A stretch of 57,628 nt of DNA from a virus (taxonomy: Duplodnaviria > Caudoviricetes): positions 1-57,628 of IMG/VR virus record IMGVR_UViG_3300048833_000443; one strand, written 5' to 3'. The position numbers and the translations under genes were made by a program. The stretch's first letter is position 1. The number at the start of each line of letters is the position of its first letter. The notes under the pieces are model-generated. The model was not told where the DNA came from and made no database searches. It saw only the letters and a list, made by a program, of their open reading frames with translations. Shown one piece after another: positions 14,100-34,234 of this stretch.

Positions 14100-14689
14100 C
14101 AGAACTTGCTCCCGCAGACTGGGCCGATGCCGTTGGCGATCGACCGCTCGTCGGTCAGCGTTGCGCCGCAGACGCAGCACGAGCCGTAGAGCGCGCCCCA
14201 CTCCTTGGCTTCCTCGAGGCTCATCTTGTCCTCGGCCGTGAGACGCCGCACCATCCCGGGAGCGTACTCGAACTCATGAGTCTTGGTCTTGGTCTTCATC
14301 ACGACCGGCTCGTCGAGCGCCACGAGCCGCTTGGCGTAGAGGTTGCCAGACCCGTGGACCGCCCGCTGGACCTTGTAGATCTGACCGTCCTTGCGGTACA
14401 TCCCCTCCGTGACGGGCTCGGCGTCGGGCGCCTGCTGCGCCTTCGGCTTGCGAGGGCAGCCCATGAGGAGGTCGATGAAGTTCGAGGTCGCCTTCTTGGT
14501 GGAGAAGACTGCGTCGAGGAACGTCTCGGTGACCGTGATGTTGGTGGACGCGATGTCCTTCTCGTCCAGCAGCCGCCGTACGAAGGCAACCTGCTTCTCC
14601 GTAGCCGCCGGCTGATCGAGGCGGGCAGTCCCGCGCCCGTGCACCTGCGATCCGTAGGTGCGATCCTTGGTGGGTACCTGCAGAGCCAT
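14099..14689 (-). CDS. DUF6011-like Zn-finger protein (first gene after P4)
   Basis: C-terminal CCVCGATLTDERSIANGIGPVC; N-terminal ATEKQ motif. Confidence 0.8.
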   Translation of the reverse strand: MALQVPTKDRTYGSQVHGRGTARLDQPAATEKQVAFVRRLLDEKDIASTNITVTETFLDAVFSTKKATSNFIDLLMGCPRKPKAQQAPDAEPVTEGMYRKDGQIYKVQRAVHGSGNLYAKRLVALDEPVVMKTKTKTHEFEYAPGMVRRLTAEDKMSLEEAKEWGALYGSCCVCGATLTDERSIANGIGPVCGSKF

Positions 14690-14734
14690 GTCCTTCATCC
14701 TTCCGTCCTGCCGGCGCTGTTGCCGACAGGAACC

Positions 14735-14773: not shown

Positions 14774-15199
14774 TCATACCGGCCAAACGTAGGGCAGGTC
14801 GTCGGGCAGGCCTTCCTCGAACAGGGAGCGGTACACGTCCGGCGCCTTCCGCAGCAGGTTCGATCGGTGAGACAAGTGGAGTGCTTCGTTGCCAAGCCAA
14901 GGCGGCCGTGGGTCGGTGTGTGTCACAACGAGCTGGTGGTCGACCCACATGTTCTCCCAGGCTCCATGGTTCTTGCCTCGCCTACGCCGCCACTCGTCGT
15001 TCATGGCATCGGCGTAGTCGAGGAGCCAAGACAGGTGCCTACGCCACATGCGGACCGCCGGGTGGTTCTGCCAGCCGTAGGTCGGGTCGGTGATGGCACG
15101 CCCGATCTGGCGCGCCTCGATGATCTGCTTGCCGAGGCGCCGCAAGTCGAGGGCAGCTGCCGACTCCTCGAAGCTCTCGTGAGGAAGGAAGGTCTGCAT
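14774..15199 (-). CDS. MSMEG_6728-like / pyrimidine-dimer glycosylase (T4 endonuclease V) superfamily protein
   Basis: MQTFLP...LDLRRLGKQ..EA.QI...GWQNHPAVRMW...PPWLG...HLSHRSNLLRK...YVWP. Confidence 0.85.
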   Translation of the reverse strand: MQTFLPHESFEESAAALDLRRLGKQIIEARQIGRAITDPTYGWQNHPAVRMWRRHLSWLLDYADAMNDEWRRRRGKNHGAWENMWVDHQLVVTHTDPRPPWLGNEALHLSHRSNLLRKAPDVYRSLFEEGLPDDLPYVWPV

Positions 15200-15348
15200 C
15201 AGCCAACCATCCGCACGATGAGGAGAACGCCGATACCGTTCTCGATCAGGTTGGCGCCTGCCCACCAGCCGTAGAGCTTGGTGAGGAATAGGCCGGCCAA
15301 GATCAGCCAGCCTGCGCCGACGATGAGCCGTCGTCTCGTTGCTTCCAT
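15199..15348 (-). CDS. Small membrane protein (49 aa)
   Basis: Conserved leader then ATG; hydrophobic; TGATG overlap. Confidence 0.6.
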   Translation of the reverse strand: MEATRRRLIVGAGWLILAGLFLTKLYGWWAGANLIENGIGVLLIVRMVG

Positions 15349-15868: not shown

Positions 15869-16599
15869 CGGCCGAGCGCCCGGTTCGAGCCGCCAACCCG
15901 GCGGTGTCCGACGTCGGCACGCTGCCCGTCCGAGCGGCCCGCCCGGGTGGCTGCGCCGTTGACCTTGGTGGACCGGGCGGTGCCCAGTCGCCCGTGCGCT
16001 GCGGCGACCGCAGCGTCGACCTTGTCCTTGCGGTCGACCAGCACCAGGGAGACGCCCGGCTCACCGGACTTGTGCTCCGCGACGGCGGTGCGCATCGACT
16101 CACGCAGCTTGGTGGCGGCGCCCTCGCCGTAGCCGATGATGTACGACTTGCGAGCTTGGAACTTCTCCGCAGCCGTCCACCAGCTGCTGTCTTGCGCGCC
16201 CCACCACTGCTTGAGCGATCGGCTGGCCTGCACCATCACGCTGGTGAACAGGATGTCGAGCCGCTCGAGGTCGGAGTGGAAGCCGTGCACCCTGGCTCGC
16301 AGGTTCTTTGAGCCGCCGCTCGAGTACTGGATGACCCGGCAGTTGAGCTCACGAGCGAGAGCGTTGAGCATCAGGATGTGCGCCTTCGAGTAGATCCCGG
16401 TGAGGTCGTACGTCTTGTCTTCGACGTCGTCGGCATTCTTGCCCGCCGCCGCGTTGAGCATGATCTCGTCGATCGCGTGCTTGGCTTGGAGGTCAGCTGC
16501 CTTTGCGAAGAACGCCTCAGCCTCCTCCGGGCTGCCGGCCCGCTCCGCCTTTGCCAGCAGCTTGATGATCCGCTGCGTGATCGTGTCTTGGTCTGCCAT
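15865..16599 (-). CDS. DUF2786 domain protein (first gene after P5)
   Basis: RIIKLLAKAE...EEAEAFFAKAADLQAKHAID; RKSYIIGY. Confidence 0.85.
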   Translation of the reverse strand: MADQDTITQRIIKLLAKAERAGSPEEAEAFFAKAADLQAKHAIDEIMLNAAAGKNADDVEDKTYDLTGIYSKAHILMLNALARELNCRVIQYSSGGSKNLRARVHGFHSDLERLDILFTSVMVQASRSLKQWWGAQDSSWWTAAEKFQARKSYIIGYGEGAATKLRESMRTAVAEHKSGEPGVSLVLVDRKDKVDAAVAAAHGRLGTARSTKVNGAATRAGRSDGQRADVGHRRVGGSNRALGR

Positions 16600-16645
16600 C
16601 TTGCTTGTCCTTCCGTCCTGGCCGGTGATTCCGGCCGATGAGAAC

Positions 16646-16749: not shown

Positions 16750-17169
16750 TCAGGCGGCGGCCTCGGCGTAGGCCGGCTGCCGGGTGCCGTTGAGCACCTT
16801 CACGACGCGGCCGGCCTTCTTGAGGCGCCACACGGAGATGTACGCGGCCTTCTCCGTGATGTCGAGCGCGGAGGCGATCGACACGGTGGTGATGCCGGTG
16901 GGACCGGCCGCCTTGATCGCGCCGAGCACACGCTCATCACGCGCCTGGACGAACGCGTCCTTGGGCCGACCACGACCGCGCTTCTCGCCGGCGCTCAGCT
17001 CGGGGGTCGAGGCGGCGGCGTAGGCCTTCCCGTCCTTGACCACGGCGCCCGCCGCCTCGAGGCTCTTCACAGTCTTCCGCACGGTGGTCTCCGACTTGCC
17101 AGTGATCTTCACGAGCTCAGCGACCGTCTTCGGGCCGTTCACGAGAGCGGCTTTGATGTTCTCTTCCAT
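16750..17169 (-). CDS. Tandem winged-helix DNA-binding protein with a central AT-hook
   Basis: TVAELVKITGKSETTVRKTVKSL; KRGRGRPK; IASALDITEKAAYISVWRL. Confidence 0.75.
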   Translation of the reverse strand: MEENIKAALVNGPKTVAELVKITGKSETTVRKTVKSLEAAGAVVKDGKAYAAASTPELSAGEKRGRGRPKDAFVQARDERVLGAIKAAGPTGITTVSIASALDITEKAAYISVWRLKKAGRVVKVLNGTRQPAYAEAAA

Positions 17170-17212
17170 CTTGCTTGTCCTTCCGTCTTGCCGGTGTTGG
17201 CGAGTAAGTCCT

Positions 17213-17250: not shown

Positions 17251-18486
17251 TCACCGTTCGCTGGTGGCTGCCCGGAACGCGTTGGTGCAGTCGTAGGTCC
17301 ACTCACGCTCACCCGTCGGCTCACCCGGGTAGGTGGACGGGTTGCCCTCCAGAGCGCGTCGGATCCACGTGCCGATCCACTCACCGCAGTCCACCGGGAT
17401 GCCCTTGCCCCACGTGAGACGAAGACCGCTGGCACGCTCGAGTGGACGGATGCGCCAGTCGTCCGGGAACCCTTGGATGCGAGCGACCTCACGGTGAGTC
17501 AGGGTGCGATCCTCCGTGGGGTGCATGATGAGGTCGAGGCCGCCGCCGGTCACCACACGAGCCATCTTGTCACCACGCCACCGGATCATCTGGTTGTAGC
17601 CCATCATCCAGTCCTTGGCGATGAGCTTCTCCAGCATCGTTGGACCCCACGACTCGGGCAACGTGCCGTGAGCCTCGTAGTAGCGCTTCGCCACGGTGGA
17701 GATGATCTCCTTCTGACCCCACGTGATGTCCTCGCTGTGAAGAAGGTCGAGGGCACGGCCGATCGCAGGAGTACGACGCCACTGGACGCCGCACACGGCG
17801 CCGGTCACCGAGCGACGCGGTCGACTCCACCACGTGGGTGGGCGGCGGTACGGCTGCTTCTCCCAGGTGGACTCCAGGCCTTCGAGGTCGCCGATGACGT
17901 CCATGAGCGTCGGCACCCGAGTGACCTCGACCGGGTCGATGCCGAACGGGATGCGGGACACGACCCAGAAGTAGCGCTTGCGAATCGCCGCACCGCCGAG
18001 CGATGCGTTGTTGTGTAGCACGTGGTGGAGGTTCCACTGCATGCCCGTGTCGTACTCGAGCTTGGCGCGCAGGTTCTGCATCAGCTCCCGCCCGCCGCCC
18101 TTCTCGGAGTAGGCCTGCCCCACCGACTCGAACACCGCGATGTACGGCTGCGTCCGAGCAACGAACCACTCGAAGGCCCACATGCAGTGGTTCACCGGGG
18201 AGTCGGCGCCACGGAAGTCCTTCCTCGAGAGGAGGCTGAACCCAGAGCACGGCGGGTTGCCGAACACGACGTGCGCCGGGATCGGCGTCCAGTCCTCTCC
18301 GGTTCCGGTCGAGACGTCGGCCTCCCAGTCGTAGCCAAGGAGCTCACGGTTGGCTTCGCAGTTCGCAACGCCGAAGCCTCCCTTCATCTCCTTCTTGCCA
18401 ACGAGCTTGAAGCCGGCTCTCACCATGCCGAGGGTGAACCCGCCGGCGAATGCTTGGCAGTCCACAGCGTGGAACTGGTCCGTCAT
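17251..18486 (-). CDS. C5-cytosine DNA methyltransferase-fold protein with atypical motifs
   Basis: Motif IV GNPPCSGFS, VI ESV, VIII RKRYF, IX HPTEDRTLTHREVARIQGFPDDW, X GKGIPV. Confidence 0.9.
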   Translation of the reverse strand: MTDQFHAVDCQAFAGGFTLGMVRAGFKLVGKKEMKGGFGVANCEANRELLGYDWEADVSTGTGEDWTPIPAHVVFGNPPCSGFSLLSRKDFRGADSPVNHCMWAFEWFVARTQPYIAVFESVGQAYSEKGGGRELMQNLRAKLEYDTGMQWNLHHVLHNNASLGGAAIRKRYFWVVSRIPFGIDPVEVTRVPTLMDVIGDLEGLESTWEKQPYRRPPTWWSRPRRSVTGAVCGVQWRRTPAIGRALDLLHSEDITWGQKEIISTVAKRYYEAHGTLPESWGPTMLEKLIAKDWMMGYNQMIRWRGDKMARVVTGGGLDLIMHPTEDRTLTHREVARIQGFPDDWRIRPLERASGLRLTWGKGIPVDCGEWIGTWIRRALEGNPSTYPGEPTGEREWTYDCTNAFRAATSER

Positions 18487-18683
18487 GACACGTCCTCATC
18501 TCTCCATTCGTACCAGACCTCTCCTGAGGCCTGGAAGCAGTGGTGCGCCGGGTCACCTTGCTGCGCGTGATCGAACCGGCGGTGACACTTGCCTCGGGTC
18601 GATTCTGCCACGCATCGGCTGCCGATCGAATCCAAGGGATCCGGGCCCGGGTCTTGGATCCGACGCGGCTCCGGCAGCGTCAC
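18483..18683 (-). CDS. Small Cys/His protein in the modification operon
   Basis: Overlapping start and stop at both ends; C...C...H...HH. Confidence 0.55.
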   Translation of the reverse strand: MTLPEPRRIQDPGPDPLDSIGSRCVAESTRGKCHRRFDHAQQGDPAHHCFQASGEVWYEWRDEDVS

Positions 18684-19195
18684 GTTGCGCCGTCCTGGTA
18701 CACGTAGCCGCAGGGGCAGTACTCAACGGCGTCGCTGCTGTCGGTGATCGGGTCGAAACGCGACGTGGTCTTCCGATCACGCTTGCAGATCGGGCACTTG
18801 TCCAAGCCGGTGTACCCCTCCGCCTGGCGGTCGGCGTTCACGTTCCGCTTCTCCATGTAGCGGTCAGCGAACCACTGGGCGAGAGCCTCCATGTCCATCT
18901 GGCCGTCGGAGGTGGACGCGACATCGACGCCGGAGACCGTGAGCATGATGTTCATGAAGAAGTGCCAGGCATCCACCATCTCCTTCATCGCCGCCGCGTG
19001 GTCCACGTGGTTGCTCGACGCCCAGGGCTTCCAGCCGGTCTCCTGGAGCATCTCCATGAGCTCGTCGATCAGCGCGAGGACGTTCCAGCGAAGGAACTCC
19101 ATGCGCTCCTCCGGCAGCATCCGCGTGGGATCCTTCCCGAAGGACTCACGCTGCAGCTTGAGCTGCGCGACGAGCATGTCAGCCATGTCGGTCAT
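18680..19195 (-). CDS. All-alpha (dimeric dUTPase/MazG superfamily) dCTP/dUTP pyrophosphatase with C-terminal Zn ribbon
   Basis: DELMEMLQETGWKPW...KEMVDAWHFF...YMEKRNVN..RQ..GY; CPIC...CPC. Confidence 0.85.
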   Translation of the reverse strand: MTDMADMLVAQLKLQRESFGKDPTRMLPEERMEFLRWNVLALIDELMEMLQETGWKPWASSNHVDHAAAMKEMVDAWHFFMNIMLTVSGVDVASTSDGQMDMEALAQWFADRYMEKRNVNADRQAEGYTGLDKCPICKRDRKTTSRFDPITDSSDAVEYCPCGYVYQDGAT

Positions 19196-19197
19196 GA

Positions 19198-20172
19198 TCA
19201 GGCTCCCGTCAGCTCGTCGTACACCCAGCGGTAGGTACGGGCGAGCCCGTCCTCGAGCGCGATGCTTGGCGACCAGCCGAGGTGCTGCTCGATGAGCTCG
19301 TTGTCGCTGTTGCGACCACGCACGCCGAGCGGCCCGTCGATGTACCGCCGTTCGAGGCGGACGCCGGCGATGCCCTCAACGATCGTGACGAGCTCGTTGA
19401 TCGTGACCATCCGATCGGAGCCGAGGTTGATCGGCTCGATGACATCGGACTCGATGAGGCGGATGGTGCCTTCGACGCAGTCGTCCACGTACATGAATGA
19501 ACGGGTCTGCTCGCCGTCGCCCCAGATGTCGATGGTGTGGTCTCCCGACAGCACCGCCTGGGCGACCTTCCGGCAGATTGCCGCAGGAGCCTTCTCCCGG
19601 CCGCCGTCGTAGGTGCCGAGGTCGCCGTACACGTTGTGGTACCGCGCCACGTGGCAGGTGGTGGAGGTCTCTTCGGTGATGTGGCCGCAGAGCCGCTCAC
19701 CGAACAGCTTCTCCCAGCCGTACCCGTCCTCGGGATCGGCGGGATACGCGTCACGCTCCTTGAGCCCGGGGATCTGCGCCTCGTCCTGGCGGTACGAGGG
19801 GTACACGCAAGCCGACGACGCGTAGAACACGTCGGGCACCTCAGCCTCCATCGCCGCCACCAGCGCGGCGGTGGTGGTCCTGGTCGTGAGCATGCACGCC
19901 AGCTTGTTCGTCTCGATGAAGCCCATGCCGCCCATGTCGGCGGCGAGGATGAAGACCCGCTCCGCGTCGTGGCTCAGGCTCTTGAGGAAGTCGAAGTTCC
20001 CCGGGTCCCCGACGTCGAACTCCTCGACCTGCAGGTCGCCGACGCGCTGGTGCCACTCCTCAAGCGGCTTCACGTCGGCGGTGACCACATGGTCACCTCG
20101 GTTCTTGAGCTCTCGGGAGAGGTGGCCTCCGATGAAGCCACCTCCTCCGAGAACGAGCGATGACGTGCTCAT
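19198..20172 (-). CDS. GDP-mannose 3,5-epimerase-like extended SDR
   Basis: GGGGFIG, LAADMGGMGFI, SSACVYP, YGWEK, GGREKAPAAICRK, WGDGEQTRSF, GVRGRNSDN. Confidence 0.9.
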   Translation of the reverse strand: MSTSSLVLGGGGFIGGHLSRELKNRGDHVVTADVKPLEEWHQRVGDLQVEEFDVGDPGNFDFLKSLSHDAERVFILAADMGGMGFIETNKLACMLTTRTTTAALVAAMEAEVPDVFYASSACVYPSYRQDEAQIPGLKERDAYPADPEDGYGWEKLFGERLCGHITEETSTTCHVARYHNVYGDLGTYDGGREKAPAAICRKVAQAVLSGDHTIDIWGDGEQTRSFMYVDDCVEGTIRLIESDVIEPINLGSDRMVTINELVTIVEGIAGVRLERRYIDGPLGVRGRNSDNELIEQHLGWSPSIALEDGLARTYRWVYDELTGA

Positions 20173-21200
20173 GTGATGATCCTTTCGATGTCGATGACCC
20201 AGGCGTCGAAGGCCTCGCGGGTCTTGGTTGGGATGACGGTGGATGGGAGGCCGCGCAGCGCGTCGTACGCCTGCGTCATGCACGTGAGGACGTCCATGGA
20301 GTCGTACGAGACGTCCCGCAAGACGTCGGTGACCTGCTGCGTGTAGCGGTAGCCGTGGAGCTCGTTGTCGAGGTCGACCAGGAGGTCGTGGTCGTTGCGG
20401 TCTTGCCGGACGAACGGCGGGCCGTAGTGGACGGCGAACCCGAGGTGGTCCATGACGGAGCGCGCGAGGTAGCTCGCCCAGATGTCGTCGAACCGTCCGA
20501 CGCCGGGCCAGCACATCATGAGAGGCGCCAAGCTCGCGCGCCATCCTGTGTTCTGGCTGTTGAAGGGGCACCACGTGCCAGGCTGCACGACGATCCCGTG
20601 GAGGGCATGTGGCGCGTAGTGCGTGACGTGCGGTCGGCACGCCAGCCGTTCGATGGCGTCGATGTCCGGGTCGCCCAGCCACAGGCCGGCGACGACACCA
20701 ACCGGTGCCCGCTGGTCGTGCGGCTTGAGATCGCTGAACACGAACCGATCACGCATGGTGAGGGGAAAGCCGCGATGGAAGACGGGCGGTGAGGCGACGC
20801 CGCCGACGTTCCACCAGTCGAGCTGCTCGTCCACCATCCACTGTGCCTCGCCTTGGAGCGCGAGCAGCACCTCGTGGAAGTACACCTCCGGAGCGAGTGG
20901 GATGTTGTCGTCATCGACCGTGACGATGGTGTGCGCTCCTCGGGCGATGGCTTCGAGGATGGCGACGTTGCGTCGCTGGATCGAGCGCCACCCGATCGCT
21001 TCGGACGATGCCCAGGAGGTCTGCTGCTCTGGGCGAAGGTACACGTTCTCACCTGGGAGACGCTTGAGCGTGTGCTCGATGTCGTCGTGCGGGGAGATGG
21101 TGTCGCCGGTGACGATGATCACGTCACCGTCTTGGAGCCCTCGTCGGTAGTCCGCCAAGACCGTCGGGTCGTTGATGGTGGTCGTGATCAGTGCCTTCAT
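20169..21200 (-). CDS. GT75 / reversibly glycosylated polypeptide (UDP-arabinopyranose mutase/STELLO-like) protein
   Basis: TVDDDN, HRGFP, GLWLGDPDIDA, PFNSQNT, GRFDDIWAS. Confidence 0.8.
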   Translation of the reverse strand: MKALITTTINDPTVLADYRRGLQDGDVIIVTGDTISPHDDIEHTLKRLPGENVYLRPEQQTSWASSEAIGWRSIQRRNVAILEAIARGAHTIVTVDDDNIPLAPEVYFHEVLLALQGEAQWMVDEQLDWWNVGGVASPPVFHRGFPLTMRDRFVFSDLKPHDQRAPVGVVAGLWLGDPDIDAIERLACRPHVTHYAPHALHGIVVQPGTWCPFNSQNTGWRASLAPLMMCWPGVGRFDDIWASYLARSVMDHLGFAVHYGPPFVRQDRNDHDLLVDLDNELHGYRYTQQVTDVLRDVSYDSMDVLTCMTQAYDALRGLPSTVIPTKTREAFDAWVIDIERIIT

Positions 21201-22501
21201 CGCTGGATCCCCATTCGTTGTTCGATCAGCTGCGCGTACCGCAGCTCCTCCGACGCAGCGTCGTAGAGACGCCGCTGCGCTCCTGCGAGCCACTCCCAGG
21301 TGTCTCGGCTGGTCGATACCGCCGCGATCCGCTTGGAGAGCTGCTCAGGGTCTTCTACCCGCAGCCACATGGCGAGGCTCGCGAGCTCATCATCGATGAC
21401 CTCTCCCTTCCTCACTTGGGCCAGCGTCGGGATGATGTGGCCCTGCGTGTCGTACTGCGGATGGAAGAAGCACACCGTGCCGGTCCCGAAGGCCTGCCAC
21501 GGCTTGGTCGTCGCCCAGCCCGAGCCGGACGAGGGCGTGGTGAAGGTTGCTGCAACCGATCGGAGTCGGTCGTAGTACACCTCGGAGGGCGCAGGCTCAA
21601 TGGACACGCCGAGCTCGGCTTGGCGCTCGGCGGGCCACTTCCCGTGGATGAACGCCGGCTGCTGCGGCAGCACCCAGTCGCGCATGGCGTCGAACCGGTT
21701 GTGCTTGACGTACGCCCGGGCCTCGTTGATGAAGAGCCCGAAGTGCTGCCGCCCCTCGAACGGTCCCATCTCCGTGGGCACGTGCTCAGGCGTGATGCCG
21801 CAGATCTCGAGGCGGGAGTACACGTAGCGCTGGGCAGACCTCCACACGTGTGGGTCGAGCTGCTCAGCTTCGAACCCGCACTCGGCCGGCGTGCGGGTGT
21901 CGGTGTATCGCTCCTGCTTGTCCTTGCGGGTGAAGTCGTACTGCCCGAGCACGGGATGGCGCAGCGGCCACTTGAGGTCCCGGGCCTTGATGTAGTTGCG
22001 AGGATCGGGGCAGAGCCAGATCTCCTCACGGGTCAGCGGGTCCTCCTGCCGGAAGGCGTTGATGCCTCGGACGATGTAAGACGCGTAGCGGACGAACGAG
22101 TCTTGCGGGTTGGTGACCTTCTCCCAGCCGGCACCCACGACCGGGATCGGCGTGTTGCTTGTGCCGTGCTGGCCGGTCCAGACGATGAGGTGATCCATCG
22201 AACGGAACCAGTCGAGCGTGAGCTCGTCGTGAACGGCGATGATGGTGGCGTGATCGGCGCCCTTCGTGCGGTCGCGAACGATGTCACGCCACGCAGTCCA
22301 CGGGTTGATGACGTTGGGCGGCATGCCCACGGTCGCCGGGTCTTCGCCGGAGTTGCGGCCGAGGATGTAGAACTCCACGTCCGGGTTCCGACGAGCGAGC
22401 GTCTTGAGGGTCAGCGGCGGCTCATCGTCGCCACCGACGGTTCCGAAGTTGTTCGGGTCGAGCGGCATGTTCCGCCCGATCTTGGCGTATCCTACGCGCA
22501 A
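21197..22501 (-). CDS. Putative DNA-base glycosyltransferase (GT-B fold, T4 beta-glucosyltransferase-like)
   Basis: TTG start with RBS GAAAGGA; LCPDPR; C-terminal WATTKPWQAF...FFHPQYDTQGHII...LRVEDPEQLSKRI...QRRL resembles the BGT C-terminus as I recall it; sugar-enzyme context. Confidence 0.65.
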   Translation of the reverse strand: MRVGYAKIGRNMPLDPNNFGTVGGDDEPPLTLKTLARRNPDVEFYILGRNSGEDPATVGMPPNVINPWTAWRDIVRDRTKGADHATIIAVHDELTLDWFRSMDHLIVWTGQHGTSNTPIPVVGAGWEKVTNPQDSFVRYASYIVRGINAFRQEDPLTREEIWLCPDPRNYIKARDLKWPLRHPVLGQYDFTRKDKQERYTDTRTPAECGFEAEQLDPHVWRSAQRYVYSRLEICGITPEHVPTEMGPFEGRQHFGLFINEARAYVKHNRFDAMRDWVLPQQPAFIHGKWPAERQAELGVSIEPAPSEVYYDRLRSVAATFTTPSSGSGWATTKPWQAFGTGTVCFFHPQYDTQGHIIPTLAQVRKGEVIDDELASLAMWLRVEDPEQLSKRIAAVSTSRDTWEWLAGAQRRLYDAASEELRYAQLIEQRMGIQR

Positions 22502-29267: not shown

Positions 29268-30122
29268 TCAGACCTTGCGGGTCCCGGGGATCCACTCGCC
29301 GTCGGCGTTGACCTCGTAGTCCGCGAACAGGAGGGGGCACTCGTGACGCATGCGCTCAGCCACCTGCTGGAACACGATGCGGATCTCCTCCTCCGCCGCC
29401 AGGCTCGTGCGCATCTCGATGACGTGCCGCAGCGTGCGGATGTTCGCCGACCAGGTCATCATCGTGGAGAGACCGATCGGGGCCAGCCGGCGCAGCGCCG
29501 ACGTGACTTCCTTCTTGTAGTGGAACGGCACGCCCTCGTCGTCCAACCCGAAGGCTTCGGCAGCCTTCATCTGAAAGTCCTCGAGCAGCTCAACGATGTT
29601 GACGATCGCCTCAGCCATCGGCCGTGCGTTGACCACTCCCGTGTCGTCGGGATCGCGGTCGTGGATGATCTTGCTCGGATCGTTGAGGATTGGCGGGATG
29701 CGCACGCCCAGGTCGGTGAGGCGGACGTACCGCAGCGACTCCTGGGAGATGGCGACGCCGGTTCGATGACGCACCAGCTCGTGGGTGAAGACCCGGGACA
29801 CGTCCTGGAACACGAAGGTGAACTGCGCGTGCTCCAGCACCGAGCCGTGGCCGACGTCGATGATGTTACGCAGGTACTCACCGGTGTCCTCTCGAACCTT
29901 GGTGACGTTGGCGTTGAGGCCGGCGTCCCAGGATCGGTAGCAGCCACGGCCGGCGAACTCCACGAGGAGCTCAGGGTCCGACGCAACCGCCGGGGTCTTG
30001 AGGGTCGGCCCGACACGGCTGAGCCACGCCTCACCACCCACGTCGTTGAGGTACCGCGCCACCTCGCCCCAGTTGAGCTGAGGCTGTGCGATGAGGTACA
30101 CGGCAGGAGTCGTCTCGCGCAT
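29268..30122 (-). CDS. thyX: Flavin-dependent thymidylate synthase
   Basis: GHGSVLEH, SRVFTHELVRHRTGVAISQESLRY, NIRTLRH, EEEIR. Confidence 0.97.
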   Translation of the reverse strand: MRETTPAVYLIAQPQLNWGEVARYLNDVGGEAWLSRVGPTLKTPAVASDPELLVEFAGRGCYRSWDAGLNANVTKVREDTGEYLRNIIDVGHGSVLEHAQFTFVFQDVSRVFTHELVRHRTGVAISQESLRYVRLTDLGVRIPPILNDPSKIIHDRDPDDTGVVNARPMAEAIVNIVELLEDFQMKAAEAFGLDDEGVPFHYKKEVTSALRRLAPIGLSTMMTWSANIRTLRHVIEMRTSLAAEEEIRIVFQQVAERMRHECPLLFADYEVNADGEWIPGTRKV

Positions 30123-30124
30123 GG

Positions 30125-31900
30125 TTAGCTTCCCTTCATGCCCCAACGTGGGGCGATGTCTACGCCCGCAGTCAGCGGGACGGTGAATAGATCGCGCTCT
30201 TCCATGACGTCGCGGATAGTCACGGAGACGTCCTGGACGAGGTCCGCCGGCACGTCGAAGATGACCTCGTCGTGCACGGGCAAGATCATGTAGTCGCCAA
30301 GGCCGGCGTTGTCGAGCTCCACCAGCTTGCGCTTGAGCACCTCGGCGGCTGTGCCTTGGATCAGGTAGTTCACGAGGGCGTACTCCTTGCCCTCATCCGC
30401 GACGTGGCGGCGGCCCGTGAGGGGGCTGACCACGTACGACTGCCCTTCGACGGATCGTCGCTGCTTGGCGACCTGATCCACGGCGCGCTGGAACGTCTTG
30501 ATGCCCGGGAACTTGCTGTGAAGCGCATCCCAGAACGGCTTGCCCTGCGTCTCCTCGATGCCGGCGGTCATGCAGAACTTCCGGAGGCCTGACCCGTAGG
30601 CGATGGCGTAGATGGCGTTCTTCGTCAGCTGCCGACGCGGATCCTTCTTCTCAATGGTCGGGTCGCCGTAGATCTCACGAGCCAGGTTGGTGAAGAAGTC
30701 TCCTTCAGCGAATGCCGCTCGCATGCCTTCGTCGCCGCAGAGGTGAGCGAACATGCGAGCCTCGATCTGATCGAAGTCGCACATCACGAGCAGGTTCCCG
30801 TCTCGTGGGATGAAGCAGTTGCGCACTGCGATGGCAAGTGGGTTGTCGTCGGACTTGCGAGGCAGCGTCTGAAGAGCCGGGGTGTCTACGCTCATGCGAC
30901 TCGTGCGAGCCTCACACGTGTTGATGTTCGGGTGAAGGAAGCCGTCCTCATCTGCGAACGCGAGGAAGTTCTCGAGGTAGGTGCCGGCGAGCTTGCGCGT
31001 TCGTCGGTACTGCAGGACCGCAGCTGCGAGCGGGTGTCCCAGGTTTGCCTCGAGGACCTCGGCATCGAGTGCGAGGCGCTTGCCACTCTGCGTCATCTTG
31101 GTCAGGTGGCAGCCGTCGGCCTGCAGCCGCTCGATGATCTTGACATCCGAGCCTGGTGTGAGGTCGTAGTGCTCGCCGGTCCAGTGCTCGACCTCGGCGA
31201 GGTTGACGTGGAACGCGTTGAGCGTTCCTTGGGTGAAGTCCCGGTCGATGCGAGCGCCCTTCTGCTCCATCGCCAGTGCGATCCACTGGGCCGCCATCTC
31301 AAGCTCGTACGCGACTCGTGGGCCGGCGTCGAGCAGCGGCTGGAAGTGGTCGAAGATGCGACACGTCAGCACCGTGTCGAGCCCGCCGTAGAACCAATAC
31401 CAGTGGAAGTCCACGGGCACGGTCGCCCACGTCCACTTGTTGTCCGCCATGGCGTCGTGGAGGACCTGCTGGGCGGCGGCAGCACGGCGGTCGATGTACT
31501 TGGCCGTGAGTGACTTGAGGGCGGCGGACTGCGTCGAGTCGATGACCCGCGCCATCATCATCGTGTCGTGGATCCTCGAGCGATCGAGCTTGTGTCCGAG
31601 CTCGCGTTCGATCAGCGCGGTGTCGTACTTGGCGTTGTGCATGACGATGTCACAGCCGACGCGGTCCAGCGCCTCGATGGCGACGCCGCCCCACCGATCG
31701 AACGGGATGGCCCAAGCTTGGTTGCGATCCCCGAACTGGATGAGACGGATGCGGTCCTTGAACTTGTCAAGGCCGGTCGTCTCGGTGTCGACACCGATGA
31801 CGTCGTGCGGCTCGGAGATCCACTGCATGAACCTCGTCGCCATGAGCACCGAGTCCACGAAGTGAACGTTCACGTTGGAGAGTGCGGACGCCTCGGTCAT
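30125..31900 (-). CDS. polA: Family A DNA polymerase with 3'-5' exonuclease
   Basis: DTETTG, HNAKYD, DFDQIEAR, RQLTKNAIYAIAYG, NYLIQGTAAE, VHDE. Confidence 0.97.
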   Translation of the reverse strand: MTEASALSNVNVHFVDSVLMATRFMQWISEPHDVIGVDTETTGLDKFKDRIRLIQFGDRNQAWAIPFDRWGGVAIEALDRVGCDIVMHNAKYDTALIERELGHKLDRSRIHDTMMMARVIDSTQSAALKSLTAKYIDRRAAAAQQVLHDAMADNKWTWATVPVDFHWYWFYGGLDTVLTCRIFDHFQPLLDAGPRVAYELEMAAQWIALAMEQKGARIDRDFTQGTLNAFHVNLAEVEHWTGEHYDLTPGSDVKIIERLQADGCHLTKMTQSGKRLALDAEVLEANLGHPLAAAVLQYRRTRKLAGTYLENFLAFADEDGFLHPNINTCEARTSRMSVDTPALQTLPRKSDDNPLAIAVRNCFIPRDGNLLVMCDFDQIEARMFAHLCGDEGMRAAFAEGDFFTNLAREIYGDPTIEKKDPRRQLTKNAIYAIAYGSGLRKFCMTAGIEETQGKPFWDALHSKFPGIKTFQRAVDQVAKQRRSVEGQSYVVSPLTGRRHVADEGKEYALVNYLIQGTAAEVLKRKLVELDNAGLGDYMILPVHDEVIFDVPADLVQDVSVTIRDVMEERDLFTVPLTAGVDIAPRWGMKGS

Positions 31901-32406
31901 GTCAACTCCAGAACGTGAAGGCCTGAGTCCTTGAGGAGCTTGATGCTGCCGCTCGGGTCGCGATGCTTGTCCCGCTCCTCGACCCGCATGACGACCATCC
32001 GTAGCCCGGAGTTCGCCACAAGCTTGGCGCACGTCCGGCACACAGCGCTCGTGACGTAGATCGCGCCGCCCTCACGCTCGCGCCGGTCACAGAACATCAG
32101 GGCGTTGGCCTCGGCGTGGATCGTCAGGCAGTCGTCGTAGTGGATGCCCGGTACGGCATCGGGTTGCGCTCGCGGGCAATCCACCTCGCACGAGGGGTTG
32201 CGCCGCATAGGGCGGATCGCAGACCCTGGCCGAAGCGGCGTCGTGAGACCGGCGGGGAAGCCGTTGTACCCGGTTGCCACGACGCGGTTGGTCGGGTCGA
32301 CGATGACGGCTCCGATCTGGCGCCTGGAACATGGCGATCGCTTGGCGATGACGTCGGCCACCTCCATCCACGTCTCCGACCAGTCGGGTCGGTCTGGGTA
32401 GATCAT
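31897..32406 (-). CDS. dCMP deaminase
   Basis: RSPCSRRQIGAVIV, TGYNG, HAEANA, CRTC. Confidence 0.92.
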   Translation of the reverse strand: MIYPDRPDWSETWMEVADVIAKRSPCSRRQIGAVIVDPTNRVVATGYNGFPAGLTTPLRPGSAIRPMRRNPSCEVDCPRAQPDAVPGIHYDDCLTIHAEANALMFCDRREREGGAIYVTSAVCRTCAKLVANSGLRMVVMRVEERDKHRDPSGSIKLLKDSGLHVLELT

Positions 32407-33275
32407 CGGACGAACTCGTTGAGAGAGTCGCGCCACCAAGGATGCGGCGTTGCGTAGGTGTCCTCATCGCGCTGCTCGAGAAGGATCTGTGCGTCGTCCT
32501 CGAGGTGGCGCCACGGCGAGAAGGCCGACCCGAGGTCGCGGATGCCTCGTGGCGTGTTCGGTCGTGATGCGGCGGCGGGGTACTTGAGCATGCCGATCGC
32601 AGGGAAGTCGCGCTCGTAGGCGTGGAGGCTGACGGCGTGGTGGTAGTACGAGCCGGCCTGCACACCCAGGGAGTGGGCAACCGTCAGCTGCAGCTGCGTG
32701 AACTGGAACGCGTCGTACGCGAGTCCCCACCACACGTCGTTGGATCGCATGGTGACGTGAAGCTGCAGCTTCCCCTCACGGATGAGGAACATCAGCATCG
32801 TGGTGCACGGGTAGTCGTGCTTACCATCGAAGTTGAGGTCGAGCTCCGGTCGCCACAAGACGATGAGGGCCTGTCGACTGTCGGGATCACGCTTGAGACG
32901 GGCGACGACGATCTCAGCTTGGTGCACGTCGTCTCCCTCACCACGGCTGTCGAGTCGGACACGATCGCCGTACGCGCCCCAGAACCGGCCGCCGTCCATG
33001 AACTGCTCGAAGTTCTTGGAGATGCGGACCATCAGCTCGGGATCGGACCGACCGCCGATGAGCTGCAACGCCTCGGCGGCGGCGATGGCGGGGTTGAGCT
33101 TGCGGCCCACGCCGATCGGCAACACGTCGGTGGGGTCCAAGACCTCGATGGTCACGTCCGTCAGCTCATGGGTGAGCAGCCCGCGAGGTCGGACGCTGCG
33201 CCCCTCCAGGACGACGCGTCGACACACGTCCACGTAACCGGCGCGAAGGTTGGGAACGGTCATGCTGGTCGCCAT
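32403..33275 (-). CDS. Thymidylate synthase homolog, dCMP-specific type (probable dCMP hydroxymethylase or related C5-modifier)
   Basis: GAYG, DPDSRQA, catalytic PCT, MRSNDVWWGLAYD (Asp at the ThyA Asn177 position), SLHAY. Confidence 0.8.
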   Translation of the reverse strand: MATSMTVPNLRAGYVDVCRRVVLEGRSVRPRGLLTHELTDVTIEVLDPTDVLPIGVGRKLNPAIAAAEALQLIGGRSDPELMVRISKNFEQFMDGGRFWGAYGDRVRLDSRGEGDDVHQAEIVVARLKRDPDSRQALIVLWRPELDLNFDGKHDYPCTTMLMFLIREGKLQLHVTMRSNDVWWGLAYDAFQFTQLQLTVAHSLGVQAGSYYHHAVSLHAYERDFPAIGMLKYPAAASRPNTPRGIRDLGSAFSPWRHLEDDAQILLEQRDEDTYATPHPWWRDSLNEFVR

Positions 33276-34234
33276 GAGCGAAGGTCCTCTCCAGTGTTGA
33301 GTGCTGAGATGATCGTGCGGGCGTAGAGCGCGCCGGACTTGTTGTGGAACCGCCGGATGTACTGCGGGTGCGGCACCGCACCAAGTGGAACGCGCCCGGT
33401 GAGTCCTCGCTCGTGCAAGGAGCGACACGCTGCCTCGTAGGCTGCGTTGCCCAGGGCGACGATCGGGGGCCGTGCCAGCGAGCACCACAGCTCGTAGACG
33501 TCCTCCTCACAAGCGTTGGCGATGCCGATCGAGGTCTCAGACCCGAGGACAGGTAGCAGGTGCTCGAGCATGAACCGCCCGGAGGTTGCGCCTGTTGGCA
33601 CGAACGCTGCGTGGTACGCCTCCGGGTCGTTGCGCCGCTCACCGAGGATCAGGTAGTCCGGAGCGCTCGATCCGATGTACGTGGTGAAGCGACGCAGGTG
33701 GTTCGTGTGCAGCCACCTGGAGTACGCGTCCTCCACGATCTCTTCGACCAGCGGGATCTTGTGATCGTGCCCAGTGCAGTTCTCAGGATCGGTGCAGCCA
33801 ACGTGCATGGTGGGCATCACGTCCGATGAGATGGCTGTCTCGTACGTGTCGTAGATCGCCGGCAGGTGCGTGACGTCCACCATGTCGTCGCCTCGAGCCG
33901 CCACTCTGTCGGCGATCAGCTCGAGAGGTGGACAGAGGTACACCACCATGGCGCCTCGAGCGACGAGGAACGCATCGATGTGCCAGCGCCCAACGACGTC
34001 TAGCTTCGACTCACCTCGGAAGATCGGTCCGTAGACCAGCTCTCCGATGTGCCAGCGATCGGCGATGATCGGCGTGACGCCGTCCCAATCCGCCAGACGC
34101 TCCTCGTACTCGGTGAACGGGTCGCTACGAAGCGGACCGCTGTGCAGCTCGATCGCGTCGGGCATCCGTGCCTTGAGCCTCGCAGCGAGCGTGGTCTTGC
34201 CGGCACCATCCGAGCCTTCGAGGATGATGATCAT
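33260..34234 (-). CDS. dNMP kinase fused to a uracil-DNA-glycosylase-like domain
   Basis: IILEGSDGAGKTT, IADRWHIGELVYG; C-terminal LILGE...AFVP...SG, VALGNAA, VPHPQY. Confidence 0.8.
   Translation of the reverse strand: MIIILEGSDGAGKTTLAARLKARMPDAIELHSGPLRSDPFTEYEERLADWDGVTPIIADRWHIGELVYGPIFRGESKLDVVGRWHIDAFLVARGAMVVYLCPPLELIADRVAARGDDMVDVTHLPAIYDTYETAISSDVMPTMHVGCTDPENCTGHDHKIPLVEEIVEDAYSRWLHTNHLRRFTTYIGSSAPDYLILGERRNDPEAYHAAFVPTGATSGRFMLEHLLPVLGSETSIGIANACEEDVYELWCSLARPPIVALGNAAYEAACRSLHERGLTGRVPLGAVPHPQYIRRFHNKSGALYARTIISALNTGEDLRSWRPA

Follow-up and report, generated by a model that had tools for sequence, protein, structure and literature searches.

A phage-restricted clade of C5 DNA-methyltransferase-fold proteins with a natural motif X lysine, linked by gene content to predicted 5-hydroxymethylcytosine synthesis in actinophages

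The window analyzed here is a whole virus record from IMG/VR (IMGVR_UViG_3300048833_000443; Caudoviricetes), 57.6 kb in length with direct terminal repeats, in which the G+C content is about 65% and every credible gene lies on the minus strand. At positions 17251-18486 it encodes a protein with the fold of the C5-cytosine DNA methyltransferases (C5-MTases), several of whose pocket and cofactor-site motifs depart from the canonical form, among them motif X, which carries a lysine in place of the usual asparagine. We find that these departures are the signature of a phage-restricted Lys-type group around this gene, for which we use the working name K-clade, and that the genomes carrying it almost always encode a predicted enzyme for making 5-hydroxymethylcytosine (5hmC). 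The host of the window virus is probably actinobacterial, as a WhiB gene and the nearest annotated relatives point to: these relatives are phages of Gordonia and Micrococcus and one 'Actinomycetia' phage from a metagenome-assembled genome. The protein is called methyltransferase-like (MTase-like) below. No DNA near-identical to the window was found among the GenBank phages.

The methyltransferase-fold protein and its clade

The open reading frame (ORF) begins with an ATG about 7 nucleotides (nt) downstream of a GAGGA Shine-Dalgarno sequence and codes for 411 amino acids (aa), of which residues 8-373 match the C5-cytosine DNA methylase family of Pfam (PF00145; E=5.4e-18, 65.9 bits against a cut-off of 22). 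An AlphaFold2 model built on an alignment of 41 relatives has a predicted local distance difference test score (pLDDT) of 94.2 and a predicted template-modeling score (pTM) of 0.93. Its best structural matches are DNMT1, MET1, ZMET2, M.HaeIII, M.HhaI, M.MpeI and SpCmoX, with Foldseek E-values reaching 7.6e-19. Superposition of the model with VIA-align gives Z-scores of 31.4 for DNMT1, 28.9 for HaeIII, 25.9 for HhaI, 25.0 for M.MpeI (4dkj) and 24.1 for SpCmoX (8yf3), and the superposed regions extend from residues 1-3 to residues 379-383. Given that the matches cover nearly the whole model, the protein is predicted to be a complete two-domain C5-MTase, with a Rossmann catalytic domain and a DNMT1-like target-recognition domain. 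A first-pass annotation of this DNA had looked to structure-based alignment with M.MpeI and M.HhaI to place the motif X lysine; the fold indeed superposes on both, but the superpositions gave aligned ranges only, and the equivalence of individual residues comes from sequence alignments.

The motif strings quoted in that annotation are all present in the translation, namely DCQAFAGG (residues 9-16), GNPPCSGFS (76-84), ESV (as FESV, 119-122) and GKGIPV (360-365), and motif VIII reads IRKRYFW (168-174). The catalytic set, reported there as intact, comprises Cys80 of motif IV, Glu120 of motif VI and Arg169 and Arg171 of the Arg-x-Arg in motif VIII. Around these residues the canonical pattern is altered: in place of FxGxGG motif I has QAFAGG, with Gln11 for the phenylalanine and Phe13 for the first glycine; the PC of motif IV is followed by Ser81 and not by glutamine; ENV of motif VI has become ESV (Ser121); and the G-Asn of motif X is G-Lys (Lys361). 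In the HMMER alignment Lys361 stands opposite the motif X asparagine of M.HaeIII (GKGIPV/GNAVPV), the family profile sets GKG against GN of both HaeIII and MET1, and MAFFT pairs Lys361 with Arg350 of SpCmoX (GRMVPP). These alignments agree with the first-pass proposal that the lysine occupies the place of N374 in M.MpeI, which is also that of N304 in HhaI and R350 in SpCmoX.

A HMMER search of 1.84 billion cluster representatives (50% identity) returned 1555 matches with E≤0.001, at least 171 of which had E≤1e-30. Signature residues were counted in the query and its best 150 matches, using the 127 of these 151 sequences that reach 330 aa and leaving out the 24 shorter ones. The motif X residue is lysine in 121/127 and arginine in 3/127, the serine of ESV is present in 122/127, and the residue following the catalytic cysteine is serine in 108/127. 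The catalytic residues are near-invariant: the cysteine is found in all 119 sequences that cover its position (8 gaps), Glu120 in 126/127, Arg169 in 125/127 and Arg171 in 127/127. The column before PPC is more variable, with Asn in 84, Thr in 17 and Cys in 10 of the 127. Motif I, which the first-pass annotation had taken for a broken S-adenosylmethionine (SAM) motif, is instead a conserved clade-specific variant of the form D-x-Q/H-G-F/L-A-G-G, that is xG[F/L]AGG, with Gly15 present in 115/127. The acidic-residue/GD[I/V] pattern that is usual around motifs II and III gives way to a clade-specific GGFG...EANRxLLGxxW block; 85/127 sequences keep the motif II glutamate, which is absent from the Gordonia subclade, and the motif III aspartate is lost, its column being mostly Gln or Glu across the clade. 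A joint alignment with canonical phage and bacterial C5-MTases sets the two sides apart, with G-K in 12/12, ESV in 11/12 and Ser after Cys in 11/12 clade members against G-N in 8/8 of the canonical sequences covering motif X, ENV in 9/9 and Gln after Cys in 8/9. Thus, the unusual motifs are a family signature of a phage-restricted clade and not a peculiarity of one gene.

Among the matches listed from 185,579 bacterial and archaeal species genomes there was no close relative, the best being canonical MTases that matched weakly or over part of their length. In GenBank, the 15 phage homologs all bear the name methyltransferase or (putative) methylase, and the cultured carriers include the Gordonia phages GodonK, Sixama and GMA2 and the Micrococcus phage Kurnik. 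One clade member of 752 aa (P0123) is interrupted, immediately behind the Pro-Pro-Cys of motif IV, by an intein with Hint, LAGLIDADG and intein-splicing domains; as inteins are commonly found at essential catalytic sites, its position points to a functional active site.

A putative 5-hydroxymethylcytosine pathway at the locus

The genes of the window that bear on the MTase-like protein are the following.

16750-17169, minus: winged-helix (TrmB/MarR-like) protein, 139 aa (Pfam)
17251-18486, minus: K-clade C5 DNA-methyltransferase-fold protein, 411 aa (Pfam, alignments, AlphaFold2)
18680-19195, minus: MazG-like all-alpha NTP pyrophosphatase (dUTPase_2), probable dCTPase (Pfam E 2.3e-11; PHROG dUTPase)
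19198-20163, minus: NAD-dependent nucleotide-sugar epimerase/dehydratase (Pfam E 1.5e-34; PHROG nucleotide-sugar epimerase)
20169-21200, minus: RGP-like protein, of the reversibly glycosylated polypeptide/UDP-arabinose-mutase family (Pfam PF03214 E 1.7e-7; start codon uncertain)
21197-22501, minus: T4 beta-glucosyltransferase-like GT-B protein, 434 aa (AlphaFold2 and Foldseek; start probably at ORF residue 12)
29268-30146, minus: ThyX flavin-dependent thymidylate synthase, dTMP supply (Pfam E 4.2e-39)
31897-32439, minus: dCMP deaminase (Pfam E 7.7e-19; found in 6/7 other K-clade genomes)
32403-33488, minus: ThyA-like protein, predicted dCMP hydroxymethylase (Pfam E 3.3e-22)
33260-34234, minus: P-loop nucleotide kinase, probable dNMP kinase for hydroxymethyl-dCMP (weak Pfam match; PHROG thymidylate kinase)

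Read along the minus strand, the order is kinase, ThyA-like gene, dCMP deaminase, PolA and ThyX, SNF2 helicase, PD-(D/E)XK nuclease, AAA_24 and DUF669, continuing with the 434-aa protein, the RGP-like protein, the epimerase, the MazG-like gene, the MTase-like gene and the winged-helix gene, and ending with DUF2786, a T4 endonuclease V-like pyrimidine-dimer glycosylase, WhiB and a primase-polymerase/D5 helicase. Taken as their longest ORFs, the ThyA-like gene and the kinase gene share 229 nt, and the Pfam match of the former begins only at residue 85; given the overlap, the true start of the ThyA-like gene probably lies downstream of 33488. ThyX, a ThyA-like hydroxymethylase and dCMP deaminase occur here in the same phage, a division of labor like that of td, gene 42 and cd in T4, but with a flavin-dependent ThyX. 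A few genes separate the MTase-like gene from the endonuclease V-like glycosylase gene downstream of it (14774-15265, minus); in phage DSL-LC01 (L004 11326-11832) such a glycosylase follows the MTase-like gene directly.

The best PDB match of the ThyA-like protein is the CMP hydroxymethylase MilA (E=1.1e-19), CMP/dCMP hydroxymethylases being its best matches, and in E. coli ThyA numbering it has L143D and N177D and keeps D169. As described in part of one study, N177D confers dCMP specificity, L143D/E goes with hydroxymethyl and not methyl products, and D169N marks the 5-hydroxy-dCMP synthases (PMC13326640). Judged by those residues, the ThyA-like protein carries the signature of a dCMP hydroxymethylase and is predicted to act as one; a 5-hydroxycytosine pathway of the RB69/DLP3 type was rejected, since D169 is kept. 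The 434-aa protein (21197-22501) has no Pfam or PHROG match, but its AlphaFold2 model (pLDDT 88.8) has T4 beta-glucosyltransferase (BGT) as its top six Foldseek matches in the PDB (E from 2.9e-7 to 4.4e-6), with which the protein-atlas leads agree, and on this predicted fold it is a probable DNA 5hmC glycosyltransferase. The RGP-like protein would be a second glycosyltransferase or a nucleoside diphosphate (NDP)-sugar mutase. Given that a probable dCTPase, hydroxymethylase, kinase and BGT-like protein are all encoded, every step by which T4 makes glycosylated 5hmC (dCTPase, dCMP hydroxymethylase, dNMP kinase, beta-glucosyltransferase) appears, by homology and fold, to have a counterpart in the window, and the MTase-like gene would be an extra member; T4 itself, to our knowledge, has no C5-MTase-fold enzyme. 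A phage that encodes a dCTPase, a hydroxymethylase, a kinase and a dCMP deaminase together should have little unsubstituted cytosine in its DNA.

In other phage systems, which combine a methyltransferase with a TET/5mYOX oxidase and glycosyltransferases, 5hmC is reportedly made from 5-methylcytosine by the TET-like enzyme. The present locus is similar in having a C5-MTase-family gene beside DNA glycosyltransferase genes in a phage hypermodification cluster, but differs in that the ThyA-like enzyme would supply the 5hmC. No Tet_JBP (PF12851) was found in the window or in five homolog-bearing phages, although 14 control genomes also gave none over the cut-off, so that this search has no positive control; on this result a TET route to 5hmC was rejected.

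That homologs with GKG and ESV sit beside thymidylate-synthase-like and glycosyltransferase genes, a pattern which the first-pass annotation had put up for checking, is borne out across the clade. Scanning IMG/VR with a pattern based on the K-specific sequence around motif X identified 56 loci and, after 8 contigs shorter than 10 kb had been dropped, 48 contigs. A ThyA-family gene is present in 41 of these 48 and in all 21 of those that are at least 90% complete. It is present in only 1/28 control contigs with canonical C5-MTases and 0/3 near-complete controls; many of the controls are short fragments, and among the 8 of at least 30 kb the ThyA family occurs in 1. All five GenBank phages examined that carry a homolog also have a ThyA-family gene, and their annotated order runs from one or more glycosyltransferases or a sugar-nucleotide enzyme through a MazG-like gene and small ORFs to the methyltransferase. 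The hydroxymethylase signature is seen in 11/11 ThyA-like proteins of one set, and pattern matching found the D/D/D signature in 25 of 28 in a second set, taken from 30 loci of which two were already covered; of the other three, two escaped the pattern and one proved a false hit. With the window proteins as tblastn queries, MazG-like genes were found at 52/56 loci (within 700 nt upstream at 47/56), BGT-like genes at 45/56, RGP-like genes at 31/56 and epimerases at 21/56. Seven of seven other K-clade genomes (56-129 kb) share the MTase-like, ThyA-like, kinase, PolA and SNF2 helicase genes. The only large K-clade contig with no ThyA-family match is an 82.7-kb linear one, 80% complete (G205, L011/L165), in which MazG is displaced and an RGP-like gene lies directly upstream of the MTase-like gene; its ThyA gene may lie in the missing part.

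Where the window has the epimerase and RGP-like genes (19198-21200), DSL-LC01 has a UDP-galactopyranose mutase (L004 5944-7041). Given this enzyme there, and an epimerase with a member of the UDP-arabinopyranose mutase family here, the sugar on the DNA may be a furanose or a pentose instead of glucose.

Two kinds of domain are found fused to K-clade proteins. The first is the winged helix: the C-terminal extensions of the closest relatives P0002 (58% identity) and P0007 are homologous to the winged-helix gene of the window, and at 10 distinct loci the MTase-like and winged-helix parts form one continuous ORF, whereas they are separate genes in the window. A winged-helix gene lies within 700 nt downstream at 11/56 K-clade loci. 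A predicted complex of the two window proteins had a score of 0.00 and a mark of 0.32, and nothing is drawn from it. Between the two genes of the window is a promoter-like TTGACA-17 nt-TAGGTT site, which is followed by one copy (17167-17187, minus, at the winged-helix gene) of a 21-nt leader that closes with the start codon; an identical copy precedes DUF2786, the next gene (16597-16617, minus), giving 2 matches against 0 expected, and a weaker copy lies near 14682-14710. The leader is probably a shared promoter or ribosome-binding cassette.

The second is a C-terminal domain with the class-I methyltransferase fold, recognized by Pfam in 7/10 long relatives and by NCBIfam models in 8/10. Of the nine scanned for the FkbM family, five are over its cut-off, and three are UbiG-like below the cut-off. 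A UbiG/Methyltransf_23-like class-I methyltransferase of about 250 aa also occurs free-standing (L128, L131-L140, L143), besides being fused in P0047, P0048, P0081 and L130/L142. Such free-standing homologs were found at 18 IMG/VR loci, with a ThyA-like gene in the fetched flank of 14, usually in a block with the kinase, dCMP deaminase and PolA. Only 3 of these 18 contigs have a match to a K-clade protein and 15 have none; the UbiG-like domain therefore appears to be a separate tailoring enzyme of hydroxymethylase modules that is sometimes fused to the K-clade domain; perhaps it is an as yet undescribed enzyme that tailors 5hmC nucleotides or DNA.

Comparison with CmoX and the question of the donor

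One of the closest known systems is SpCmoX of Synechococcus phage S-B43 (PDB 8YF3), a DNA cytosine C5-carboxymethyltransferase according to the parts of its description available to us (PMC12783734). There, Arg350 replaces Asn304 of HhaI, contacts the carboxymethyl group of carboxy-SAM (Cx-SAM) and mirrors the N374K change of M.MpeI; the wild-type enzyme is reported to accept Cx-SAM and not SAM, and R350N to accept neither (PMC12783734). Taking as its sequence the single PF00145 gene of the S-B43 genome, its motifs read FAGGGG (I), SPPC-S-AFS (IV), ENV (VI) and GRMVPP (X). It is thus like the K-clade in the serine after the catalytic cysteine and the basic motif X residue, and the model superposes on it over 290 residues. 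It differs in having arginine and SPPC where the window protein has lysine and NPPC, and, unlike the K-clade, in keeping canonical motifs I and VI and the residues Phe25, Glu47 and Asp69 that serve the adenosine. SpCmoX is, moreover, encoded with CmoA and an amide ligase, neither of which was found in the window, and it comes from a cyanophage with no reported hydroxymethylase link, whereas the K-clade is tied to a hydroxymethylase. The clade profile matches HaeIII (E=5.7e-27) better than SpCmoX (E=1.7e-13); given this, and the different motifs I and VI, the SpCmoX-like pocket looks independently acquired. The K-clade cofactor site, as read from its motifs, looks to have diverged beyond what the use of Cx-SAM needs.

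The engineered enzymes M.MpeI N374K and M.MedI N377K share with the K-clade the change of asparagine to lysine at the same position of motif X, but in them it is a single change in an otherwise canonical protein, whereas here a natural, conserved lysine is accompanied by Ser81, Ser121 and rebuilt motifs I-III. The engineered change confers use of Cx-SAM in the available accounts (PMC12783734, PMC12015181), and with SAM M.MedI-N377K still gave more than 99% protection and M.MpeI-N374K 28% (PMC12015181). In M.HhaI, the pocket that takes up the transferred group is described as lined by Gln82 and Asn304; methylation falls about 16-fold in Q82A, and larger groups are favored when the residues are smaller (PMC3526304). 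With the canonical enzymes M.HaeIII, M.HhaI, DNMT1, MET1 and ZMET2 the K-clade shares the fold, the catalytic Cys, Glu and Arg-x-Arg, motif IX and a DNMT1-like recognition domain, but their FxGxGG, PC-Q, ENV and GN are all altered in it, and it was found only in phages in the searches made. DNMT3A and DNMT3B resemble the K-clade in having a natural basic residue at the N304-equivalent position, but differ as true SAM methylases, and the clade profile did not recover them at E≤0.01. DNMT3A keeps ENV and canonical motif I. In the mouse enzyme the residue is Arg887, equivalent to DNMT1 N1580 and to the M.HhaI residue, in the portion of the study that covers it (PMC13594970). Arg887 and the SAM activity of M.MedI-N377K undercut the motif X lysine, taken alone, as a sign of a function other than methylation.

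The remark in that annotation that no CmoA-like synthase is encoded agrees with six-frame profile searches of the whole record (TIGR00740 and Methyltransf_25), which were empty at E≤1; no class-I MTase-fold gene was found in the window. CmoA was likewise absent from 5/5 homolog-bearing GenBank phages, making 6/6 phage genomes with the window. On the host side, an even sample of 201 genomes from the class to which an actinobacterial center genome belongs (one of them flagged unpublished) gave no match over the 193-bit CmoA cut-off, the best two reaching 163 and 110 bits. Since neither the window, the homolog-bearing phages nor the sampled genomes gave a CmoA over cut-off, Cx-SAM is unlikely to be available to the window enzyme, and the first-pass suggestion of an anionic donor, if it is taken to be Cx-SAM, becomes unlikely. 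An AMP-forming amide ligase (CmoY) was not among the families found in the window ORFs scanned with Pfam, a scan that covered the small ORFs only in part. The idea of a hidden CmoA-like gene was also rejected: the window has none, and the second domains fused in relatives are FkbM- or UbiG-like and gave no CmoA (TIGR00740) match at E≤0.01.

Possible functions and their meaning

The K-clade appears to be a core part of an actinophage 5hmC program, the steps of which are assigned by homology: a MazG-like dCTPase, a ThyA-like dCMP hydroxymethylase and a kinase would provide the nucleotide, PolA would incorporate it and a T4-BGT-like glycosyltransferase would then act on the DNA. Within this program we tentatively prefer, as a possibility that could readily prove wrong, the reading that the enzyme edits the phage's own 5hmC DNA. 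It would act after replication on C5-substituted cytosines and not on plain cytosine: the DNMT1-like domain would flip the base, Cys80 would add to C6, Glu120 would protonate N3 and Arg169 and Arg171 would hold O2, roles that the conservation of these residues would fit. With Ser81 in place of Gln, and Ser121 and Lys361 each in place of Asn, the pocket would be enlarged and polar and could hold the 5-CH2-O group, Lys361 might serve as general acid or charge partner, and the hydroxyl or the whole hydroxymethyl group would be exchanged or removed via a 5-methylene intermediate. The rebuilt adenosine site (Gln11/Phe13 and the lost motif III Asp) suggests that SAM is bound differently or is not a methyl donor. 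Related chemistry has a background, in that C5-MTases can couple thiols to 5hmC. Ordinary C5-MTases are also described, in the part of the source available, as forming covalent complexes with 5hmC DNA and removing the hydroxymethyl group, with loss of formaldehyde as a side reaction (PMC11347137).

Four coordinated changes that are conserved in the clade and absent from the 8-9 canonical MTases of the same alignment favor this reading, as do the tight link to predicted 5hmC synthesis, the Ser-plus-basic pair that SpCmoX has at the two pocket positions, the adenosine-site changes that SpCmoX does not show, and the fusion of some relatives to a class-I MTase-fold domain, which as a separate gene has a ThyA-like neighbor at 14/18 loci. 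We rank it first because it alone explains why the gene is a core one only where cytosine is replaced. Several points weigh against it. We know of no natural enzyme of this kind and can name no co-substrate for it. Co-occurrence with ThyA is confounded by descent, since a single replication module (PolA, SNF2, DUF669, AAA_24, PDDEXK) is common to the K-clade phages, and full replacement of cytosine by 5hmC is deduced from gene content. The retention of the motif I G-G (Gly15) and, in two thirds of the sequences counted, of the motif II Glu suggests that the protein continues to bind a nucleotide cofactor, and ordinary methylation is compatible with a basic residue in motif X, as DNMT3A and M.MedI-N377K show. 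Attachment of sugar already has what is probably a dedicated BGT-like enzyme, taking off the hydroxymethyl group would reverse a modification that the phage itself makes, and the fusions may only reflect merged neighboring genes.

Rather doubtful, to our judgment, is that the protein is a plain SAM-dependent C5-methylase, acting on host DNA or on cytosines that escape replacement by 5hmC, as a back-up protection from restriction, with its motifs as lineage variation. The complete fold and catalytic set, the mostly kept motif I Gly-Gly and motif II Glu, the basic residue of DNMT3A, the protection that the engineered N-to-K enzymes give with SAM, and the annotation of 15/15 GenBank phage homologs as methyltransferase or methylase would all fit such an enzyme, as would the base rate, given that most odd-looking MTase homologs are MTases. 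However, four positions that are near-invariant in canonical enzymes have changed together and then been conserved, motif I no longer has its Phe nor motif III its Asp, HhaI Q82A methylates far less, and SpCmoX, with the same pair of serine and basic residue, is reported to refuse SAM. Nor would a plain methylase have a reason to occur only with a dCMP hydroxymethylase (21/21 against 1/28), where it would find little substrate. The first-pass verdict that the protein is probably not a plain methylase is thus reasonable but unproven: it now draws on the four coordinated pocket and cofactor-site changes and the tight link to 5hmC, and not on the lysine, which by itself is insufficient.

We consider it unlikely that the enzyme transfers, in the manner of CmoX, an anionic or extended group to C5 of plain cytosine, either the carboxymethyl group of Cx-SAM or the 3-amino-3-carboxypropyl group of SAM bound in another pose. 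The latter is our own speculation and has no DNA precedent; Lys361 would pair with the carboxylate and no special synthase would be needed. The alignment of Lys361 with SpCmoX Arg350 and of Ser81 with the serine after the SpCmoX cysteine, the acquisition of Cx-SAM use by engineered N-to-K enzymes, an adenosine site rebuilt in a way that would suit a different binding pose, and the second class-I MTase-fold domain of some relatives, which is CmoA's fold, speak in its favor. They are outweighed by the failure to find CmoA in the phages or over the cut-off in the sampled genomes, by the FkbM- or UbiG-like nature of the fused domains, of which the window has none, by the lack of an AMP-forming ligase among the window ORFs scanned, by the absence from the clade of the canonical motifs I and VI of SpCmoX together with its closer profile match to HaeIII, and by the same shortage of substrate with a free C5 position that faces a plain methylase.

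It is very improbable that the protein is a catalytically silent DNA-binding reader or regulator of modified or unmodified cytosine, working with the winged-helix partner in, for example, expression control or discrimination of host and phage DNA: the fused or adjacent winged-helix domain and the degenerate cofactor motifs would suit it, but the near-invariance of the Cys (119/119), Glu120 (126/127) and Arg171 (127/127) is not expected of a mere binder. Two further candidates were set aside. A tRNA substrate, as for Dnmt2-like enzymes, came to mind because the Gordonia homologs have tRNA arrays next to them, but no tRNA gene occurs in the window and the predicted recognition domain resembles that of DNMT1. 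Coupling of sugar by the MTase-like enzyme, a role raised in the first-pass annotation, is unlikely given the T4 BGT-like enzyme encoded four genes upstream.

In a literature search whose scope did not extend to subscription journals and supplements, no report was found of a natural Lys-type enzyme or of a C5-MTase homolog in a ThyA-type 5hmC pathway. That a C5-MTase homolog (CmoX) transfers carboxymethyl groups in nature was, from the text available, reported only in late 2025, and the search of those authors required Arg350 and SPPC (PMC12783734), which places the Lys-type clade outside it; the supplementary and sequence-logo figures of that paper, also beyond the scope of our search, may bear on whether Lys variants were noticed. 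The accessible portions of the Thanatos (PMC12838424), GMA2 (PMC4524720) and MetaGPA (PMC8670742) papers do not mention the enzyme group, the GMA2 text only speculating on protection from restriction (PMC4524720).

Together these observations describe a clade that occurs in Gordonia, Micrococcus and freshwater Actinomycetia phages and that, with no source of Cx-SAM found, is tied there to the predicted synthesis of 5hmC and glycosylation of DNA, and since several carriers are cultured phages its function is directly testable. It is a tentative proposal, on the unlikely side, that these are the first natural C5-MTase-fold enzymes that, instead of methylating cytosine, exchange or remove the hydroxymethyl group of 5hmC or transfer a non-methyl part of SAM, giving a new cytosine derivative without CmoA or TET. 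The possible outcomes are a new DNA base, a natural 5hmC editor, which would be useful for the chemistry of 5hmC mapping, or a new cofactor specificity for DNA labeling. If the enzyme is a plain methylase, then the Ser/Lys pocket does not predict the choice of donor, which matters for the annotation of CmoX-like enzymes. If the novel reading is true, the DNA of a widespread actinophage lineage would contain a still unknown cytosine derivative.

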